NCBI GenBank assembly: GCA_043819135.1
Contig: JBDRFG010000034.1
Span: 1-60,677 of the forward strand
Length of the DNA: 60,677 nucleotides
Direction: 5' to 3'
Origin: Candidatus Eiseniibacteriota bacterium
GTDB taxonomy: Bacteria > Joyebacterota > Joyebacteria > Joyebacterales > Joyebacteraceae
The notes below the pieces were generated by a model. That model searched no databases. It was not told the origin of the DNA and saw nothing but the letters and a program-made list of their open reading frames with translations. Positions 20,342 to 50,888 of this stretch are shown here, one piece after another. Numbering within the stretch: the first letter of the stretch is position 1; the number at the start of each line of letters is the position of its first letter. The position numbers and the translations under genes were made by a program.

Positions 20342-21676
20342 CTATCTGTACATCGCCTTGATCGAGCCCCAGGACGCCTCCTGAACCGGCGCCGCGCACG
20401 CGTCGCAGGTTGTGTAGGGACTCGTGTGTGCGCCTAGAGCGAAATTGAACGGGTTGTTGACCAAGAGGCAGGGCGAGTTGTCACAGAGGTAGTAGTCACC
20501 TTCGAGCACGTCGCAGAAGAGCGGGTCTACCCGGAGGTTCCTGCTGCTCGGGTCGACCGAGAGATTGTCACCTCCGACGTTGCCGAACGCCAGGCAGAGC
20601 GTCGTAGCAACCGAGTTGTAGTCCTCCGCCTGAACAGCGGCGCCCCCCGTCCCGAACGCGAAGATCGACTGGGTGACGGCCATCTCGAACCCGAACTCGC
20701 CGGCCGAGTAGATGCTGCCGCCGTGTCCGGCGCCGTTGAAGCAGAACGTGCAGCTCTGGACGGACAGAGACCTCGTGTAGTCGGTCAGGGCGAAAATGCC
20801 GCCGCCCCGCAGAGTGGCCGTGTTGTACTCGAATACGCAGCCCGCGGCGTTGACCCACGTGAATCCGTTGATGAAGAGCCCGCCGCCGCGCGAAGCCGTG
20901 TTTCCCGTGAATCTGCAGTAGTACACCTTCGAGGGATCCTCGGGCTCGGTCTCACCATTGTCAAGAGTCCCCACATAAACACCGCCGCCGTCGGTCGCGG
21001 AGTTGTCTATGAAGTCGCAGTCCGAGATGTGGACGAGCGTCCCCGTCTTGCAGCACACGCCGCCCCCGCTGTGGCCGGCCACGTTCTCCTCGAAGTCGCA
21101 CTTGGCGATGTCCACGTCCGCTCCGTAACAGTAGATGGCGCCGCCGTAGTCCAGCGCCTCGTTGCCCGTGAATTCACAGGACACGATGTCCATGATGGCC
21201 GAGATGCCGCAGTGCAACGCTCCGCCCCGCACGGCGTAACAGTTCTCGAACGTGCAGCCGAGTATCGCCGGCGCCGAGTTCGAGCAGTAGATCGCGCCGC
21301 CCCATCCCGCGGTCTCGCCGTTCGACGGAGCTCTGCCGTTCATGATCGTGAACCCCTCGATCGTGGTTCCCGGCGACTCGTTGCCGGCGAGCACGAATGC
21401 CCGCCCCGTGTTCTGGCAGTCGATGATGGTCAGGTCGGCCCCCGCCTCTGACAGCAGGTACACGTTCTTCCCGCCGAACGCGATGTCCCGGTTCTGCGGT
21501 CCTGAGTATGTTCCCGGTGCGACGAGGACGGTGTCGCCCCCGCTTGCCGCGGTCATTCCTTCCTGGATGGTCTCGTACTCGCCGCCCCCGTTCAAGTCGA
21601 CGTGGACCGTGCCGGCGGCCGATGTTCCGGCCAGGATGCCGAAGACAGAGACAAGAGATAGCAGATGAGCCTTCAC
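20342..21676 (-). CDS. Secreted right-handed beta-helix protein with C-terminal SWGSIKAMYR tail
   Basis: GAGGAGG RBS with GTG start; YETIQEG..AA.GGDTVLVAPGTY; GGA repeats; DPLFC..SPCL. Confidence 0.88.
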   Translation of the reverse strand: MKAHLLSLVSVFGILAGTSAAGTVHVDLNGGGEYETIQEGMTAASGGDTVLVAPGTYSGPQNRDIAFGGKNVYLLSEAGADLTIIDCQNTGRAFVLAGNESPGTTIEGFTIMNGRAPSNGETAGWGGAIYCSNSAPAILGCTFENCYAVRGGALHCGISAIMDIVSCEFTGNEALDYGGAIYCYGADVDIAKCDFEENVAGHSGGGVCCKTGTLVHISDCDFIDNSATDGGGVYVGTLDNGETEPEDPSKVYYCRFTGNTASRGGGLFINGFTWVNAAGCVFEYNTATLRGGGIFALTDYTRSLSVQSCTFCFNGAGHGGSIYSAGEFGFEMAVTQSIFAFGTGGAAVQAEDYNSVATTLCLAFGNVGGDNLSVDPSSRNLRVDPLFCDVLEGDYYLCDNSPCLLVNNPFNFALGAHTSPYTTCDACAAPVQEASWGSIKAMYR

Positions 21677-42358: not shown

Positions 42359-45040
42359 ATGCGAATCCCGTGTGCCCTTGTCCTCACGCTGTTCGGGGCG
42401 ACGTTCGCCGCGTACGCGCTCACGGCGACCCGGTCCTTCTACTGGGGCGACTCCGCCGAATTCGTCGCCGCGGCCACGACTCTCGGCATCGCGCACCCTC
42501 CCGGGTATCCTCTCTACACGCTGCTGGGAGCTCTGGCGGTTCGTCTGCCGTTCGGAACTCCGTTCCTGCGAATGTCGCTTCTCTCGGCGCTCTTTGCCTC
42601 GGGGGCAGCGGCGGTGGCCGCGCTCATCGTGTGGGTGACGACGGGCCCATCGCTTCAGACGATGGGGAGGAGGGCTCTCCCGCGGGCGGCCGGCGCCCTC
42701 TTCGCGGGCGCAACCCTTGCGTCTGGGACTACATACTGGTCACAGGCCGTGGTGCCCGAGGTCCACTCGCTGTCGGCCTTCCTTGCGCTGTCGGCCCTGT
42801 TGTTGTTCGCCATCTGGAGCCGGACCCGCGGCAGTAACGAAACGAGACCGCCGTCCGACGCCGGTGATCCGCCGCGGTTCCTGCTCCGGGATGGTCCGGT
42901 CGTCCTGATGGGGCTCGTTCTGGGGCTGGCGCTGGCGCATCATCTTACGGTCGCGTTCCTTGCTCTGCCGCTCGCGATAGCCCTGTTCAATTTCGGGAGG
43001 AGACCGTCGTTCCGGGCGGCGCTCTCGGCCGCCGGGCTTCTCGCTCTTGGCCTGTCCCTCTACGCCTACCTGCCCATGCGCGCGGCGCACGATCCGGCGG
43101 TCCTCTGGACCCCCATCGGAACGTGGCGGGAGCTTCTCGACCACATCACGGGGGTGCAGTACGCGCCGCTCCTGTTCGGAGCGCCACTCGTGGAGGTCTC
43201 GCACAAGATGACGGTCTTCGCGTCGGGCATCCCCCGGGAAGTCACGTGGGTCGCGCTGGCTCTTGCGGTTCCCGGATTTGTGGCGTTCTTCCGGACGACG
43301 CGCGTCGTCGCCATCGTTCTTGTCTGCTGGAGCCTCCTTGTTCTCGGGCACGCGGCCGTCTATCGGATTCCCGACATCGCCAGCTACTACGTCCCGGTGT
43401 ATGCGGCGCTGGCGATCGCCGGTGGCCTCGGTCTGTGCGCCGTGGCATCGGCGCCCTGGTGGAAGCGCGCGGCTCCGCCCATAGCGTGGCTCGCGCTCGC
43501 GGCCGCCGTGGCGATACCGGTGATGCAGGCCAGGAACGGCTGGTCGGCGAACGACCGGAGCGTGAGAGACGACGGAAAGGTCTACCTGGAGCGCATGCTC
43601 GACTCCATCGCGCCCGGCGGCGTAGTGCTGACGATGACCGACCGCGTCCTGTTCCCGCTGTCTTACGCGCGCTACGTCGACCGGACCCGCGAGGACTTCT
43701 CGATAATCTGCATTCGGGAGTACGCGCCGCACCTCGAACAGTGGTGTCCAGGAGTTCGCTTCCCGGCGGAGGACCAGCTCTGTTCCAGCTTCGAGAGCTG
43801 GTCGGCACCCCCGACCGAGGCCGCGCGCGAGTCGATCCCCGTCGGGAACTATCTCCCACTGCTTGTCTCCATGAACGTGGCTGAACGGCGTTTCTACGCC
43901 GACGCCGACCTGGGGCGGAGGGTGTTCCCGGATCGGACTCTGCCGCGCGGTCTTCTTGTCGAGATAGTCGCAAGCCCCGTCGACTCGATCCCTGCCGAGG
44001 AGTGGGCCGAGCACGATGCCTTCTGGGACCTTGTCCTGCGAGAGGTGGGGTCCGAGCCGTCTCCTGACGAGCGAACCGCCGAGGCATACGCGAAGACGCT
44101 CGCGGAGCAGGGGATGCTGATGATCGACAGAGGGGACATCGACTCCGCCGTCGATGCACTCGAAAGGGCGTGCGCCCTGGCGCCGGGCCTGCCGCTCTGC
44201 CACAGCAATCTCGGGGTCGCGTACGACAAGAGCGGGAGACGCGAGGACGGCGTCGCGGAGTTCGAGACCGCCATCGCCCTCAACCCCGGGCTTGCGGAGC
44301 CGCATCACAACATCGCGGTTGCCGCTCGGCGGAGCGGCGACGTGGCTCGAGCGAAGAGGGAACTCGAGGCGGCGATCGCGCTGCAGCCGCGGAGCCCCTC
44401 CTTCAGGATGGAACTCGGCGGACTCCTGGAAGAGCAGTCCGAGTTCGAAGGTGCGGAGCTGATGTTCAGGAGCGCCGCGGCCCTCTCCTCAGATGAATGG
44501 GGCGCGAGCCTCGCCTACGGTGACTTCCTCAGGCGCAGGAGACGGTACTCGGAGGCCGTGGCGGCGTACCAACGCGCGGAGGAACTCAGGCCGAATTCTT
44601 CCGGCGCGCTCCGCGGGTTGGGTCGCTGCTACTGGGCTTTCGAAGACAGAGAGCGGACTCTCGAAGTGATGCGACGGCTCGTGGAGCTGCAACCGCACAA
44701 CCCGTCCGTCAGGTTCGATCTCGCCGCGATGCTGCATCGTTCGGGACGGGGTCGCGAAGCGGCGCTTCTGCTCGATGATGTGATCCGCATCCTCCCGAGC
44801 ATGTGGGAGGCGAGGGCGCTCAAGGCAAGCATACTGGCTGAGCTGGGGCGATACTGGGAGGCGCGCAACCTCTTCGAGGAGGCCGCGGATCTCGGTGCCT
44901 CGGGCGACGGCTTCTGGGAGAGATGGGTGGCGATGGAAGCGGACCTGGGTGAAGATGGACGCGAGGGGGCGGTTCGAGAGCGTGCGGCCTCGTCGAGCGA
45001 CACGCGAGGTGACGCCGGGTCACGCGCTGTTGCAGAGTGA
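42359..45040 (+). CDS. DUF2723 (TMEM260-like GT-C) membrane protein with C-terminal TPRs
   Basis: WGDSAEF...LGIAHPPGYPLY, WSQAV..EV, LAHH, Y.YLP.RA; many TM helices; TPR region. Confidence 0.85.
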   Translation: MRIPCALVLTLFGATFAAYALTATRSFYWGDSAEFVAAATTLGIAHPPGYPLYTLLGALAVRLPFGTPFLRMSLLSALFASGAAAVAALIVWVTTGPSLQTMGRRALPRAAGALFAGATLASGTTYWSQAVVPEVHSLSAFLALSALLLFAIWSRTRGSNETRPPSDAGDPPRFLLRDGPVVLMGLVLGLALAHHLTVAFLALPLAIALFNFGRRPSFRAALSAAGLLALGLSLYAYLPMRAAHDPAVLWTPIGTWRELLDHITGVQYAPLLFGAPLVEVSHKMTVFASGIPREVTWVALALAVPGFVAFFRTTRVVAIVLVCWSLLVLGHAAVYRIPDIASYYVPVYAALAIAGGLGLCAVASAPWWKRAAPPIAWLALAAAVAIPVMQARNGWSANDRSVRDDGKVYLERMLDSIAPGGVVLTMTDRVLFPLSYARYVDRTREDFSIICIREYAPHLEQWCPGVRFPAEDQLCSSFESWSAPPTEAARESIPVGNYLPLLVSMNVAERRFYADADLGRRVFPDRTLPRGLLVEIVASPVDSIPAEEWAEHDAFWDLVLREVGSEPSPDERTAEAYAKTLAEQGMLMIDRGDIDSAVDALERACALAPGLPLCHSNLGVAYDKSGRREDGVAEFETAIALNPGLAEPHHNIAVAARRSGDVARAKRELEAAIALQPRSPSFRMELGGLLEEQSEFEGAELMFRSAAALSSDEWGASLAYGDFLRRRRRYSEAVAAYQRAEELRPNSSGALRGLGRCYWAFEDRERTLEVMRRLVELQPHNPSVRFDLAAMLHRSGRGREAALLLDDVIRILPSMWEARALKASILAELGRYWEARNLFEEAADLGASGDGFWERWVAMEADLGEDGREGAVRERAASSSDTRGDAGSRAVAE

Positions 45041-45147
45041 CTGGTTCTCCTGTAGTATGGAACGTGGTCCTTGCATACGTGATGTGCAGGGGGCGCCGAC
45101 GGCCGGCTCAGGAAGCATCACAAAGCGGCGAAACGGAAGAGCGGGGC

Positions 45148-47751
45148 ATGAATACCGACGGGCACGCTGGCCGTGATGCGCCGGCCGGCACGCAGCGACA
45201 GGTCCGCTTCACGAGCAGGGAGATCGCTCTCCTTGGTCTGATGGCGGCGCTGTGGGGTGTGATAGAGATCACCGTCGGCGGGATGATCAAGACGTGGCAC
45301 ATTCCGTTCGGCGGCTCGTTCCTCTCGACTTTCGGTGTCGTCATATTGCTCACGGCGCGTGGCAGCGTGCCGCGCAGGTGGTCGTCGATACTGATCGGGG
45401 TTGTCGCCGCCGGGGTGCGTCTCGCCTCCGGGTTCGGCGGCGCCGTGTTCGCGGCGATCGGCATAGTCGCCGAGGCGCTCATCGTGGAGCTCGTGCTCAG
45501 CCTCTGGCCGAGTTCGCGGCTGCGGGCTCGTCTGCTTGCCGGTACTCTGGCCGTGATGTGGGCGCTGGTCCATCCGTTCGTCGTGCAGGGATACATGGCG
45601 GGCCTGGGGCCGGCGAAGGTCTATTCGGTTACCATCGGGCTGATCGCCGGGCAGGAGTCTCTCGGTTCCGGACAGGCCCGGTTGGTATTTCTTTCGTTGA
45701 TGCTGGTTCACGCGATTCTGGGGGTTTGCGCCGTGCTCTTCGTTGACAGGATCATCCTGGCTCCATCCGCGCGCGCGGACGGTTCCGCTGGGAAGGGGGA
45801 CCGAGGTGGCAGCGCAGGCGGGTCGTCCAACGGAGTCGGAAGAACCGGACTCCTGGTCGTGCTCGCGCTCGCGCTGTTGCTGACGGCAGGCGTCCCGGAC
45901 GCTGTCGCGCAGCAGTCGGAGTCGTCGCGTGTGGCCGCCGGCGTCGGCCCCGCGGGAACCTACTGGTTGCTTCCGGAGTTCACCGTCGTCGGCTCGAGAC
46001 TCTTCGGGCCCTACACGGTGTTCGAGCTGGAGTCGGAGGATGTCCAGGACACGGGCTCCGACAACCTGTCCGACGCTCTCAGCCTGGTGCCGGGAATGAT
46101 CGTGCGGACGAACTCACGCGGCGAGGCCAAGCTTTCGACCCGCGGGCTTGCTGAGCGCGAGATCGTCGTTCTGGTGGACGGAGTACCCATCTCGGACCCC
46201 TACAACGGCTCCGTCAACACCGGCATGATCCTGAGCGGCGCCATAGGCAAGGTCAGCGTGACCAAGGGCCCGGTGGCGAGCGTCTACGGGGCGAACGCGC
46301 TCGGGGGAGTCATCGAGGTGACGACCGCGGGGAGCAGTCGAACGGGTCTCAGCTACCTTCTGTCCACGGGCAGCGACGGCCAGTACTCCGGCTTCGTATC
46401 CGGCGGAGGCAGCCTCGGCGCCGTCCACCTCACCGGCGGGCTGGCCGCCAACGGGGGGAACGGTTTCGGGCTTCCCGAGTCGTACGGCGCTGAGCGATGG
46501 GAAGACGGCGGACGGCGGGACTACTCAGGTCGTGAGGACATTTTCGCCTGGGGTCGTGCCTCGTGGAAGTTGAGCCGCACCGCGGACGCCTCCATCTCGA
46601 TGCAGGTTGCCGACGGAAGGCGCGACGTCCCAGCTTCGACGAGCGCCGATCGCCCGCGGTTCTGGAGTTTCCCTTACTGGCGGGAGACCCGCACCATCGG
46701 GTCGGTGGGATGGCAGCCGAGCGACGCGCTTCACGTCGAGGGCAAGTTCTTCTACGGCACCAACGATAATCAGCTGGCCGCCTATTCCGACTTCGAGCGT
46801 ACCGACCGACGGTGGCTGTCGAGCGTGTCGAACCGCGTCTACGGCGGATACGTATACACCGAACTCGACGCGTTCTCGGGTCAGCGTCTCTCGGGGGGAC
46901 TGAACGTCAAGCGCGATGTCGCCTCCCTGCAGTCCGATATCGGAGAGGAGTGGCGTGACCACGAGGCCATCACCATGTCACTCTTCGGACAAGACGTGGT
47001 GACGCTGGGCCGTGATGACCTCGTGGCCGTCGCCATCAACGCCGACGCCATGGCAGGAGAGGAGATCTCGCTCGTCAGGGTCAATCCGCAGGCCTCCTGG
47101 AGCAGGCGACTGCCGGCCGACCTCACGCTCCGCCTGCTCGGCGGAATGAAGACGCGTTTCCCGACGCTCAAGGAGTGGTTCAGTCCCGATATCGGCAACC
47201 CTGATCTCAGGCCCGAGATGAGCACCTCGATCGAAGCCGAGATCATCAAGCGAACGTCGCGTGGTTCCAGGATTTCGCTCCTCGCGTACGAGCAATGGGT
47301 CGACGACATGATCGTGTCGTCGGGCGGTGGAGATCCCTGCCGGAACGTCGGGTCCGTGACATCGTGGGGAACGGAGCTGGGCGTGCGGCACAATCTCTCG
47401 AGTGAGCTGGACGTCAACCTGAGCTTTGCGATGACGTCCGCCCGCGACACCGAAACGGGCGCCAGCGTGCCTCTTGTGCCGAAGACCATGGTGGCGGCAC
47501 TGGCCACATACACGCGCGGTCCGGCGACCTGCCTGGCGCGGGTCACCCGCGTGGGGTCTCGGCCCGTGTCGAGCGGCGACGGGTTACCGCCATACGTCCT
47601 GATGGATCTGAGAGGCATCTTCGAGACCGCCTGGGGTGACTTCTTCGTGGGTGCCGAGAACGTTCTAGACGTCCTGTACGAGGACGAAGGTGGGTTCCCG
47701 CAGTCCGGGCGAAGGTTCGAGTTCGGCGTCATGAGGGAACTCCAGCGTTAG
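45148..47751 (+). CDS. Fusion of ECF-S-component-like membrane domain, internal signal peptide and TonB-dependent receptor
   Basis: About 6 TM helices (ALWGVIE..G...IPF.G); plug VLVDGVP, V.KGP.AS.YGANALGGVI; barrel GNPDL.PE, ENVLD..YE...GFP..GR; alternative GTG start at 45037. Confidence 0.8.
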   Translation: MNTDGHAGRDAPAGTQRQVRFTSREIALLGLMAALWGVIEITVGGMIKTWHIPFGGSFLSTFGVVILLTARGSVPRRWSSILIGVVAAGVRLASGFGGAVFAAIGIVAEALIVELVLSLWPSSRLRARLLAGTLAVMWALVHPFVVQGYMAGLGPAKVYSVTIGLIAGQESLGSGQARLVFLSLMLVHAILGVCAVLFVDRIILAPSARADGSAGKGDRGGSAGGSSNGVGRTGLLVVLALALLLTAGVPDAVAQQSESSRVAAGVGPAGTYWLLPEFTVVGSRLFGPYTVFELESEDVQDTGSDNLSDALSLVPGMIVRTNSRGEAKLSTRGLAEREIVVLVDGVPISDPYNGSVNTGMILSGAIGKVSVTKGPVASVYGANALGGVIEVTTAGSSRTGLSYLLSTGSDGQYSGFVSGGGSLGAVHLTGGLAANGGNGFGLPESYGAERWEDGGRRDYSGREDIFAWGRASWKLSRTADASISMQVADGRRDVPASTSADRPRFWSFPYWRETRTIGSVGWQPSDALHVEGKFFYGTNDNQLAAYSDFERTDRRWLSSVSNRVYGGYVYTELDAFSGQRLSGGLNVKRDVASLQSDIGEEWRDHEAITMSLFGQDVVTLGRDDLVAVAINADAMAGEEISLVRVNPQASWSRRLPADLTLRLLGGMKTRFPTLKEWFSPDIGNPDLRPEMSTSIEAEIIKRTSRGSRISLLAYEQWVDDMIVSSGGGDPCRNVGSVTSWGTELGVRHNLSSELDVNLSFAMTSARDTETGASVPLVPKTMVAALATYTRGPATCLARVTRVGSRPVSSGDGLPPYVLMDLRGIFETAWGDFFVGAENVLDVLYEDEGGFPQSGRRFEFGVMRELQR

Positions 47752-47946
47752 CGAACCACCCCGCGACGCCCGCGGGCCGCATTCGGAGGACAGACTCGGG
47801 CAACCGAGGACGCGCGCCGGCATCCTAGTACATGGGTGTGTGTCACACCGGTGTGTTTGGTGCGTTTGTGCCCGGTTCGGCCCGCTTCGTGGAAGGGTTC
47901 GGCAGCCGGGAGAGCTTCCTGCTCACAGCATCGAGGGCGAGACATC

Positions 47947-48537
47947 ATGATCGAGGGAATGCATCCTTCCGGTCGCCGCCTGGCGCGGATGGCGATCGCA
48001 GCTGTTCTTCTGGCGGCAGTTCCTCTGGCGAGTCACGCCGCGGAAGCGCTCAGGCGTGAGGCAGAGGATTACCCGACGTACGGATCGTACGACATCGGCG
48101 GCTACGACATCACGGAGTCCTACTGCAGCTACGCGAGCCAGGGTCTCGCCGTCGATGGTCTGGACATTCCGGACGAGTGGTTCAAGCTCAAGGTGACCTT
48201 TCCGAGCGCCGGCTGCTACACCTCGTGGATCGACTACCAGAGCGCGTACGGTGACACGGTCGAGTTAGCGGTCAGGCTGCTGGATTACCCGACGCCCGGG
48301 GACGAGCTCAGGGCCGACTACGTGCTGATCGACGGCTTCGGCTTCGGCTGAGGCCCTCTGCTCAGCGCTGCCGGGAGCAGCGAGTTTTGCGTGGAGGCTG
48401 GAACCTACTTCCTGCTGGTGCAGCACGTCTCCGGTGGGATGGGTCGCGTCGACTTCGTCGAGTTCGAACCGACCACGCCGGTGGAAGCGATCACCTGGGG
48501 TCGCATTAAAAGCATGTATAACCAGCCCGCTCCTTAG
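47947..48537 (+). CDS. Candidate secreted selenoprotein (CBM6/35-like beta-sandwich, in-frame UGA at 48349) with TWGRIKSMY tail
   Basis: Signal peptide, EAEDY; DGFGFG-TGA-GPLLSAAGSSEFCVEAGTYFLLVQHVSGGMGRVDFVEFEPTTPVEAITWGRIKSMYNQPAP-TAG; SECIS-like hairpin. Confidence 0.75.
48366..48382 (+). promoter_or_regulatory. Candidate bacterial SECIS element
   Basis: cgctgc-CGGGA-gcagcg; G-containing loop about 20 nt after the UGA. Confidence 0.6.
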
Positions 48538-48585
48538 TGCGCGGGCACGGCCGGACGCACCCCCGACAACCCCATAGGAGGGAGC

Positions 48586-49791
48586 ATGCGCCATCTCCTT
48601 CTGACGCTCGCCGTGCTGGCACTGGCGGGCGTCGCTGCTGCCGACGACGCGATCGTGGCTCGCACCACGATCGGCGACGTCCCCCGAACATACACGCATT
48701 TCATGAACGCGCAGGAAGCCGCCCTCTGCCGTGCTAACGCCGCGGCCGGGGGCATCTCCGCGTACTTTTTCAATCCCGCGGTCGTCGCTGATATCTCGGG
48801 CATATCCGGCCAGGCCACCATGCGCGTCAACGCGAAGTCGCGGAACTACCTGCCCGAGGGCGACGACTACCTGGATGCGTCCGACGACGTCTTCCTTTTC
48901 TCTCAGGCCGTTGCGGCCAAACGCAATGAGATGTACGCTCTTGGATTCGGCTACTCCTGCCCGTCCTACAGGAATCTCGAGTTGAGCGGCCGCGTGGATG
49001 GCGCCTCCTACCAGGGCGTTTTCCAGGGAGGTCTGCGCTTCTTCGAAGTGCTCGCGGCAACGAGGATCGGCTCCGAAGGCCAGGGGGCGATAGGGATCGC
49101 CGCCGGGATAGCCAGCCTGAACGAGAGCGCGACCGAGAAGGGAACGGAGCAGAGGTACATTCGCACGGCCGAGATGGACGGGATCGCGACATCGGTGGCC
49201 GTGGGCTTGACCTTCGACGCCACGGAGCGGCTGGTGTTCGGTGTGGGCTACCGCTTCAGTACGGCCTTCGATGTGGAAGGCGAGTGGCACACGGAACTGC
49301 CCGGCGACGGAGTTTCCACGGGCACGACGAAGACCGAGCCGGTCGCGGTGGTCGGTGCGCGCTACACGCCCCTCGACAACTACACCATCTACGCAAGCTA
49401 CATTCACGAGGGCTGGACCAAGGCGGAGTCCTCGTTCGCGGCCTACTACGATACCGACGAGTGCGCGGACTGCAACGAGAACGAACATCGCAGAGACGAA
49501 TTCGGGAGCGCGCTCGGGACGGCGGCAATAGGTGGGGAGGGGACCGTGCTCGACGGGAGACTCACCGTTCGAGCCGGCTTCTCGATGCCGATAGGTTCTG
49601 ACCTCGACAATGCGGTAGAGCCCGAGTACAGAGAACTCGTTCCGGAATACGCGGCCGGCGTGGGCGGGACGTTGAGGTTCGAAGAGTATTCGGTAGAGGC
49701 CGCCTTCGTGCGGGAGCTGTACGCGGACGGGCCGGAGAGCGAGCAGGTGGTCAACCACGGTATCTACGTGACCGCGGGGTACGACTTCTGA
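48586..49791 (+). CDS. Outer-membrane beta-barrel (FadL/OmpP1/PorV-like)
   Basis: Signal peptide, SAYFFNPA motif, amphipathic strands, C-terminal YVTAGYDF. Confidence 0.7.
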   Translation: MRHLLLTLAVLALAGVAAADDAIVARTTIGDVPRTYTHFMNAQEAALCRANAAAGGISAYFFNPAVVADISGISGQATMRVNAKSRNYLPEGDDYLDASDDVFLFSQAVAAKRNEMYALGFGYSCPSYRNLELSGRVDGASYQGVFQGGLRFFEVLAATRIGSEGQGAIGIAAGIASLNESATEKGTEQRYIRTAEMDGIATSVAVGLTFDATERLVFGVGYRFSTAFDVEGEWHTELPGDGVSTGTTKTEPVAVVGARYTPLDNYTIYASYIHEGWTKAESSFAAYYDTDECADCNENEHRRDEFGSALGTAAIGGEGTVLDGRLTVRAGFSMPIGSDLDNAVEPEYRELVPEYAAGVGGTLRFEEYSVEAAFVRELYADGPESEQVVNHGIYVTAGYDF

Positions 49792-49823: not shown

Positions 49824-50888
49824 ATGAAAATAGCGGTTGCCATGAGCGGCGGAGTGGACAGCTCCGTCGCTGCTCACATTCTGAAGGAGCAGGGGCACGA
49901 GGTCATCGGCCTCACCATGAAGATATGGCCCTGTGGCGCCGAAGAGAACGGCGGCGGCCGCACGTGCTGCGACCCTGACTCCATCAGGGACGCCGAGCGC
50001 GTCGCCGGAGAACTCGGGATACGTCACTACACGCTGGGTATGCGCGGAGCGTTCGAGAAGGCCGTGGTCCGCGAATTCCTCACTGAGTACGCTGCAGGCA
50101 GGACCCCCAACCCCTGCGTGACCTGCAATCGCCTCATCAAATTCGACCCGTTCCTGGAGAAGGCGTCCGCGCTCGGAGCGACGCACCTCGCAACGGGGCA
50201 TCATGCCGTCGCCGCGCGCGACGACTCGAGCGGCGCACACCTTCTGCGGAAGGGGAGGGACCGCTCCAAGGATCAGAGCTACTTCCTTTACGTCCTCACG
50301 CAGAAGCAGCTGCCCAGAGTGCTGATGCCGGTGGGCGCCATGACGAAGGCCAAAGTGCGGGACGTCGCGAGGGCCGCGGGATTGTCCGTCTCGGAGCGCG
50401 CCGAGAGCCAGGATATCTGCTTCGTGCCCGACGGCGACGTCGCCGCGTTCTTCCGTCTGCTGATGCCCGAGGCCACGCGGCCCGGCCCCATAGAGGACCG
50501 GGACGGGAACGTGCTCGGCGAGCACCGGGGCATGGCCCTCTACACGATAGGGCAGAGGAGCGGACTCGGGCTGTCTCGCCCCAGACCGACCTATGTTGTC
50601 CGGATAGACGCGGTGCGCAACGCCGTCGTCGTCGGTGACGACGAGGAGCTGTACTCATCGGAACTCACGGCCTCCGATCTCAACTGGATCGCGGGGGCTC
50701 CTCCCGCGCGTGAGTTCCGGGCCGAGGCCAGGATCCGCTACGCGGCGGAGCCCGCTCCCTGCACCGCCCGCGTTGACGGTGACGCTCTCACCGTGGCCTT
50801 CGCCGGCCCTCAGCGGGCGATAGCGCCCGGCCAGTCCGCGGTGCTCTACGACGGGGACGTCGTGCTCGGAGGCGGCGTGATTCAGTAG
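49824..50888 (+). CDS. mnmA: tRNA-specific 2-thiouridylase
   Basis: AMSGGVDSS, GRTPNPC..CN..IKF, KDQSYFL, ESQDICF, YTIGQR, PGQ. Confidence 0.97.
   Translation: MKIAVAMSGGVDSSVAAHILKEQGHEVIGLTMKIWPCGAEENGGGRTCCDPDSIRDAERVAGELGIRHYTLGMRGAFEKAVVREFLTEYAAGRTPNPCVTCNRLIKFDPFLEKASALGATHLATGHHAVAARDDSSGAHLLRKGRDRSKDQSYFLYVLTQKQLPRVLMPVGAMTKAKVRDVARAAGLSVSERAESQDICFVPDGDVAAFFRLLMPEATRPGPIEDRDGNVLGEHRGMALYTIGQRSGLGLSRPRPTYVVRIDAVRNAVVVGDDEELYSSELTASDLNWIAGAPPAREFRAEARIRYAAEPAPCTARVDGDALTVAFAGPQRAIAPGQSAVLYDGDVVLGGGVIQ

Follow-up and report, generated by a model that had tools for sequence, protein, structure and literature searches.

A candidate exported selenoprotein family with a CBM6/CBM35-like fold in an uncultured bacterial lineage

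In bacterial selenoprotein genes, an in-frame UGA is read as selenocysteine (Sec) with the help of a hairpin, the bacterial SECIS. According to the published model, this element has a stem of 4-16 bp and a loop of 3-9 nt with a G in one of its first two positions, and lies 16-37 nt from the UGA (PMC13188914). Most of the families tabulated in that catalogue have a thioredoxin-like fold. Carbohydrate-binding modules of the CBM6 and CBM35 type are beta-sandwich domains of a different kind. Cleft A of CBM6 is described by the residues Trp92, Tyr34, Asn120 and Glu20 in the available text of PMC10284105, and the calcium ligands of such modules comprise an E-x-E motif and a late Asp or Asn (after the available text of PMC9843283).

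Here, we describe a gene that combines features of both, found in a 60,677-nucleotide stretch of bacterial DNA (the window). Taken as a whole, our reading of its product as an exported selenoprotein, built on a CBM6/CBM35-type sandwich and carrying a redox-active Sec135-Cys60 pair, is held at slightly better than even confidence. Recoding itself is a known mechanism; what appears to be new is the family, together with its fold and its likely location outside the cytoplasm. The features discussed below are collected in Table 1.

Table 1. Features of the selenoprotein candidate gene and its conserved neighbours (window coordinates)
Feature	Position	Strand	Basis
Full gene, UGA read as selenocysteine, 196 codons	47947..48537	+	Frame reading; full-length homologues with one TGA
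Predicted signal peptide	47947..48042	+	Hydropathy and alignment, by pattern
CBM6/CBM35-like beta-sandwich, residues 33-176	48043..48474	+	Model, structural matches, profile
Cys60, proposed partner of Sec135	48124..48126	+	Conservation
Cys90, predicted structural disulfide with Cys148	48214..48216	+	Co-occurrence
In-frame UGA, predicted Sec135, in G-x-G-x-G-U-G-P	48349..48351	+	Homologue comparison
Predicted bacterial SECIS, 6-bp stem, 5-nt loop	48366..48382	+	Pairing, covariation
Cys148, 3' of the UGA, covaries with Cys90 5' of the UGA	48388..48390	+	
C-terminal tail, W-G-x-I-K-x-x-Y motif, candidate export/sorting signal	48475..48534	+	
Upstream conserved neighbour: TonB-dependent receptor with conserved hydrophobic N-terminal extension	45037..47751	+	
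Downstream conserved neighbour: probable outer-membrane barrel, weak OmpP1/FadL/TodX match	48586..49791	+	
mnmA, tRNA 2-thiouridine synthase, kept in the block	49824..50888	+	

The in-frame UGA and the sequence behind it

The frame opens with ATG at 47947, meets TGA at 48349-48351 (codon 135) and continues, as the original prediction had claimed, for 61 sense codons to TAG at 48535-48537. The strand-rich segment (EAGTYFLLV...VDFVEFE) and the C-terminal tail that it had placed in the added part are both there, and so is the hairpin with a G-containing loop that it had located about 20 nt behind the UGA. The loop starts 20 nt past the UGA and its second position is the G, a geometry that satisfies the published SECIS model (PMC13188914). 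At least 61 open codons follow the stop in 146 of the 540 TGA-ended genes of this genome (64% GC), and 17 of the 540 match the present gene in codon-use score as well; the hairpin, folded as a single sequence, does not outperform shuffled ones (z -0.12 to +1.19). Since open frame and single hairpin alone are no better than chance, the case for recoding rests on comparison. No sigma-70-like promoter was seen in 47600-48700. A search of sequencing runs listed no RNA run and one DNA run, which held 0.22 of the words and whose contig fell short of the gene.

All 51 database proteins recovered in a protein search, the window's own included, end one residue before the TGA, and the closest named relatives carry the label Candidatus Eisenbacteria. 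By profile search, the gene was matched in 29 of the 31 genomes of its own phylum-level group, where 37 of 40 matches contain one TGA and the other three are partial and do not span the column. A second phylum, entered via two records labelled Candidatus Eisenbacteria, has the gene in 21 of 206 genomes; 23 of its 26 matches hold one TGA, two hold Cys and one is without the Sec segment. Once the loci of the two phyla are de-duplicated by an 83-residue window and five partial matches off the column are left out, TGA stands at the column in 68 of 70 distinct loci and Cys in the remaining two. A library clustered at 50% identity yielded 99 matches, 66 of which stop at the Gly motif (the stop codon itself being visible only where the fetched locus matched) and 13 of which run the full length and carry Cys at the column; the rest comprise nine separately called C-terminal pieces, one fragment with Trp, whose codon at the column is not visible, and ten frameshifted, partial or unrelated sequences. 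Altogether, Cys occupies the column in 15 sequences (13 library proteins and two loci). These Cys forms are scattered over the tree, with 11 changes, at least three of them forced by well-supported branches of what is a quick, unrooted tree with many open forks, which suggests repeated exchange of Sec and Cys. Homologues thus carry TGA or Cys at the column, the single Trp fragment among the 99 apart, with conserved sequence behind it, which is what the check proposed with the original prediction asked for; their conservation makes a read error at the TGA implausible. A second homologue search with a broad alignment returned no further named proteins, and viral contigs gave two weak partial matches.

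Several loci depart from the simple arrangement. Tandem paralogue pairs, about 40% identical and each member with its own UGA and hairpin, occur at L006, L007, L009, L038, L039, L041 and L063-L067, and within such pairs one member is without the Cys90-Cys148 pair. A Cys copy lies beside a TGA copy at L106. Internally deleted copies are present in two genomes of the gene's own genus, and the second-phylum copy without the Sec segment is comparable (L005:6001-6402, L008:2567-2860 and L105:1459-1840); they are real deletions or assembly collapse. The L005 copy joins two Asp-Gly repeats and retains UGA and hairpin.

The segment behind the UGA evolves as coding sequence. Among 18 collinear genes, difference rates at codon positions 1, 2 and 3 are 0.31, 0.20 and 0.48 behind the UGA, and 0.29, 0.26 and 0.45 before it. 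Cys90 and Cys148, which lie on either side of the UGA, are both present in 27 and both absent from 14 of 41 sequences, with no discordant case; a structural disulfide between them is predicted. The tail ends 62 of the 68 TGA loci, and the other six comprise two with a longer C-terminal domain, one lipoprotein, one with a different end and two cut by the contig end.

Comparison also bears on the hairpin. Its stem cells are paired in 88% of cases across 36 distinct sequences, against 70% after shuffling and at most 54% when the stem is slid, and five of the six stem pairs show changes on both sides, that is, covariation; the bacterial SECIS layout that had been claimed for it is therefore matched in geometry and upheld by a covarying stem. 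Seven sequences of one subfamily have two pairs broken and fold with a bulge or a shifted stem. Third-position differences fall to 0.15 inside the hairpin, compared with 0.45-0.48 elsewhere, and a bacterial-type hairpin follows 65 of 66 testable sites versus 395 of 1048 ordinary TGA stops. The second phylum has a different, nearly invariant stem-loop at the same column, one that constrains even the protein sequence to be fixed (20 of 21 aligned sites); in both of its Cys copies this stem-loop has decayed, the loop G or one pair having been lost.

Genes for selenocysteine insertion, named in the original prediction as something to look for, are found in this genome: tRNA-Sec on contig C25, adjoining a selD with a TGA of its own, selA on C106, and part of selB on C53, whose end cuts the gene and leaves its C-terminal 348 codons (89% identical to the full selB of a congener). 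The only tRNA with a UCA anticodon is tRNA-Sec. Within the gene's own group, 28 of the 31 genomes yielded selA and 22 yielded selB. In the second phylum, selA is present in 18 of the 21 carriers, a co-occurrence of little power because selA is common there (185 of 206 genomes overall); the three carriers without selA include the only one that has no copy other than a full-length Cys form. TGA copies also occur in two second-phylum and three own-phylum assemblies without a selA match, which are presumably incomplete.

Other UGA genes with similar hairpins exist in this genome at C10:873, C152:1466, C152:6752 and C25:54265 (selD). Going by their motifs, we take the first to encode a TlpA-like protein (TPR and thioredoxin-like, with UxxC) and the two on C152 to encode HdrA-like, heterodisulfide-reductase-like proteins with CxxU. 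A further TGA, near C9 5663, lies 24 codons from the end of a long repeat protein, directly ahead of the tail; since paralogues have Trp or His at that column and no G-loop hairpin follows, it is probably a nonsense change and not Sec.

Could the UGA nonetheless be a true stop, in a short protein, a pseudogene or a product of sequencing error, with the hairpin acting as a terminator, or could it be read as Trp or Gly? The frequency of long open frames behind TGA codons in this genome (146/540), the passing of a terminator-like scan by the hairpin and the Trp in one fragment would fit such a reading. Against it, the T-run shows no conservation, the segment beyond the UGA evolves in the coding manner and supplies three strands of the sandwich together with a cysteine that covaries perfectly with Cys90, and the tail is retained at 62 of 68 TGA loci; at the column, 15 sequences have Cys as the replacement, and the UCA anticodon is borne by tRNA-Sec alone. 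The covariation, the Cys substitutions and the coding-type evolution refute these alternatives in substance, and we consider them very improbable. Judged by these comparisons, UGA 48349 is almost certainly recoded as selenocysteine.

A carbohydrate-binding-module-like fold with an altered cleft

Modelling of the mature domain with Cys in place of Sec (AlphaFold, 41 sequences) gave an all-beta sandwich with a pLDDT of 94, three strands of which follow residue 135; this model supersedes an earlier one of the whole protein, built from 11 sequences (pLDDT 57). The top structural matches are CBM6, CBM35 and CBM36 modules (Foldseek, VIA-align; Z 17.7, rmsd 1.9, 130 residues). The prediction of a CBM6/35-like sandwich instead of a thioredoxin fold is thus borne out in the model, where CBM6 and CBM35 rank first. 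The best hit of a PDB sequence search, in which nothing was significant, was a CBM35-containing mannanase (E 0.58), and the window protein has no Pfam match, so that it falls below gathering for PF03422 and PF16990; weak Pfam CBM_35 matches appear in 18 of 41 members (best E 2.3e-4). The family profile matches a CBM6 profile at 94% with E 1.4e-7. A Cys homologue, P0060, used as query in the ESM Atlas retrieved, as mere leads, unnamed clusters at 0.91-0.92, some of them from Poribacteria, and CBM6/CBM35 clusters at 0.82-0.84.

Cleft residues were equated by profile alignment, with some register uncertainty, using CBM6 sequences from 12 of 13 fetched loci aligned to the family and to PDB chains. 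Phe131 takes the Trp92 position (aromatic in 33/41), Leu72 the Tyr34 position (aromatic in 0/41; Leu, Ile or Val in 41/41), Arg167 the Asn120 position (Asn in 2/41) and Ser58 the Glu20 position (Glu in 12/41). The signature of cleft A, which consists of a pair of aromatics plus the Asn of region C, is thus incomplete: two of the three classic sugar-binding residues have been lost. The same alignment puts both Sec135 and Cys60 in the loop cleft, the former in a 6-residue insertion that directly follows the Trp92 loop and the latter two residues away from the position of Glu20.

Cys60 is kept in 41 of 41 aligned members and at 68 of 70 loci, as counted by a pattern search with seven pattern misses settled by eye. 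The two loci without it are the only ones with Cys at Sec+2, and because they group together in the tree, the loss of one cysteine and the gain of the other count as a single event. Conservation of Cys60 is no proof of a redox role, since 7 of 12 ordinary CBM6 domains also have Cys at this position. From its conservation and the cleft that it shares with Sec135, we infer that the latter may pair with this residue, the cysteine of the YCSY motif, as the original prediction had suggested. The calcium ligands of CBMs have predicted counterparts in E40 (41/41), E or Q38 (40/41) and D169 (40/41), and E38, E40 and D169 are predicted to form a structural calcium site.

Export, the C-terminal tail and the gene neighbourhood

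With a basic start, a hydrophobic core at residues 13-29 and an Ala-x-Ala-type end near residue 31-32, the N-terminus has the pattern of a signal peptide, by which the protein is likely to be exported. The tail recurs widely. As claimed at the outset, exactly four other open reading frames of the window close with the same motif (tails at 20371, 27579, 41241 and 51526), and 58 of the 63 tail motifs in this genome lie within 6 residues of the stop. A type IX-like C-terminal domain replaces the tail in three distant homologues (by eye), and the tail is missing from one lipoprotein form, which stands on Ig-like stalks. The genome encodes SprA and six PorV-family genes over cut-off, and gives 65 matches to C-terminal domains (CTDs) of this system. 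The short tail has no match to TIGR04183 or any other NCBIfam model, and no paper on such a tail was found. From its position and its interchange with other targeting signals, a role as sorting signal is plausible.

In lipoprotein forms, seen at L141:6463-7698 and in P0086, P0108, P0115, P0130, P0132, P0135 and P0138, Ig-like repeats precede the domain. These forms likewise end at the Gly motif, and TGA and hairpin are present in L141, the one for which DNA is at hand.

In its own group, the gene order is conserved: the TonB-dependent receptor comes first, one or two family genes follow, and then come the probable barrel and mnmA. Among 17 such regions the receptor is directly upstream in 14, the barrel directly downstream in 16 and mnmA present in 15, its link to the family gene being probably positional only. 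Two genomes of one genus lack the receptor in the block and keep the family gene. The best matches of the receptor, all far below threshold, are B12 and heme receptors. Its hydrophobic N-terminal region of about 230 residues, kept in 13 aligned orthologues, has by eye the look of a membrane-transporter component and matches no family. The downstream barrel has no conserved Cys. No riboswitch or other Rfam element was found in the window or at four syntenic loci.

The neighbours of the window gene have no match among those of 17 second-phylum loci. There, the divergent neighbour in nine cases (8 of 17 fetched regions and one more) is an exported protein that joins a CxxC domain of the AhpC/TSA type to a probable barrel; this redoxin-barrel protein occurs in 15 of 21 carrier genomes as against 3 of 185 others, an overlap inflated by kinship. 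Its genes, at L131, L134, L136, L137, L138, L140, L144 and L146 (e.g. L144:5607-7652), are unannotated, fit no NCBIfam family and share an invariant P-P-L-G-G-x-x-G-C motif. A redoxin-barrel gene was not found in the present genome or in 18 others of its family (19 searched). A hidden family copy predicted beside the redoxin-barrel gene of G119, itself a strong match, was not found within 5 kb.

Possible functions and relation to known systems

A four-step mechanism can be proposed. SelB-bound Sec-tRNA would, very probably, decode the UGA with the aid of the hairpin 20 nt downstream. The signal peptide would then bring the protein outside the cytoplasm, where the predicted Cys90-Cys148 disulfide and the E38/E40/D169 calcium site would form. 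The tail may direct it to the surface or the outer membrane, perhaps through the type IX-like system of the genome, a step with an even chance of being right. Finally, and with comparable confidence, the Gly-rich loop of a refitted sugar cleft would place Sec beside Cys60; the pair could cycle between selenol plus thiol and a Se-S bond, act on thiols, disulfides or oxidants of the envelope, and depend for its recycling on an exported protein of the thioredoxin fold. To us, the most likely function appears to be that of an extracytoplasmic redox centre formed by Cys60 and Sec135, a view held at about even confidence. More tentatively, and with considerable doubt, a lectin module may have turned into a selenium enzyme or a redox-gated receptor, carried outside the outer membrane by its short C-terminal signal and working with dedicated outer-membrane partners as a surface thiol/selenol relay; the partners would be the TonB-dependent receptor and barrel in one phylum and the thioredoxin-barrel fusion in the other.

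Sec135 and Cys60 might instead capture a soft metal or a metal cofactor at the surface, such as corrinoid cobalt, copper, nickel or mercury, and pass it to the TonB-dependent receptor. The receptor and barrel flanking the gene in 14 and 16 of 17 regions, the receptor's sub-threshold likeness to B12 and heme receptors and the lipoprotein forms on Ig-like stalks all accord with this, and the catalogued selenoproteins include TonB receptors, BtuF and ABC substrate-binding proteins that bear Sec (PMC13188914). Yet the window and four syntenic loci contain no Rfam element such as a riboswitch, two genomes of one genus retain the gene in a block without the receptor, and the window's neighbours go unmatched at the 17 second-phylum loci; moreover, as mnmA and other housekeeping genes are part of the block, synteny may reflect inheritance only. 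We regard capture as rather unlikely. That the protein is still a lectin, with a Se-S bond that is structural or gates the cleft, seems improbable to us. The ranking of CBM6, CBM35 and CBM36 among structural matches, the weak CBM_35 matches in 18 of 41 members, the retained calcium residues, and the aromatic (33/41) and Glu (12/41) at the Trp92 and Glu20 positions speak for glycan binding, and a CBM35-like module reportedly binds polygalacturonate without the usual signature (available text of PMC9843283). The Tyr34 position, however, is Leu, Ile or Val throughout and the Asn120 position is Asn in two members of 41; neither a glycoside hydrolase nor any other catalytic domain is attached to the homologues seen or encoded among the recurrent neighbours scanned; and the retention of Sec over Cys in most lineages suggests a chemistry that requires selenium.

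The redox reading of an exported selenoprotein would mean that a carbohydrate-binding scaffold supports selenium chemistry beyond the cytoplasm. The family is near-universal in one uncultured phylum-level lineage (29/31), yet cut short in annotation (51 of 51 close proteins). Thanks to its natural Cys versions it can be tested directly in E. coli, and the two unrelated SECIS designs at one column, together with the decayed copies in Cys revertants, constitute a natural test of SECIS rules. The family may also serve as evidence that the short tail, carried by about 60 proteins of this genome, is a targeting signal.

As to novelty, the original prediction had recognised no described family, and neither Pfam nor NCBIfam has a family that suits the protein, the paralogues or the Cys homologues; the window protein and two distant paralogues have no match in the NCBIfam library at E up to 1. 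Literature on selenoproteins together with Eisenbacteria, carbohydrate-binding, groundwater or deep-Sep contained no description of it. The main risk to this assessment is a set of unvalidated selenoprotein candidates that Deng et al. in 2026 reportedly obtained from groundwater genomes, which lie outside the coverage of that search. The available text of PMC13326102 and PMC12013277 makes no mention of Eisenbacteria or carbohydrate, the family table in the supplement of the former perhaps lying beyond it. Among the 119 prokaryotic families in Table 1 of the 2026 catalogue, there is no matching entry and none with a CBM or galactose-binding-like domain (PMC13188914), so that the present family would add a fold absent from that table.

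The gene resembles those of bacterial selenoproteins made with SelA, SelB, SelC and SelD in its in-frame UGA, its G-loop hairpin within 16-37 nt, its Cys homologues and the accompanying machinery. Unlike selenoproteins of the thioredoxin fold, the protein is all-beta in the model and has no CxxU or UxxC motif, the proposed partner cysteine being 75 residues from Sec. UXX-star family 2 (GxGU), HgcB (GVGU), HesB-like (UxGP) and YHS (GxU) selenoproteins are similarly Gly-rich before Sec, but they consist of different domains, for which the catalogue gives the NCBIfam models. With type IX substrates (TIGR04183) the protein has in common a signal peptide and a C-terminal tag, in a genome that contains SprA, the PorV family and CTDs, whereas its own tail is short and falls outside that model. 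The predicted jelly-roll, the E-x-E with a late Asp and the profile match relate it to CBM6 (PF03422) and CBM35 (PF16990) modules, e.g. PDB 2cdo, 1uxz and 3zm8. It differs from these in scoring below the Pfam cut-offs, in standing alone and not appended to an enzyme, in the lost Tyr34 and Asn120 positions and in the Gly-rich loop with Sec or Cys that is inserted in cleft A.
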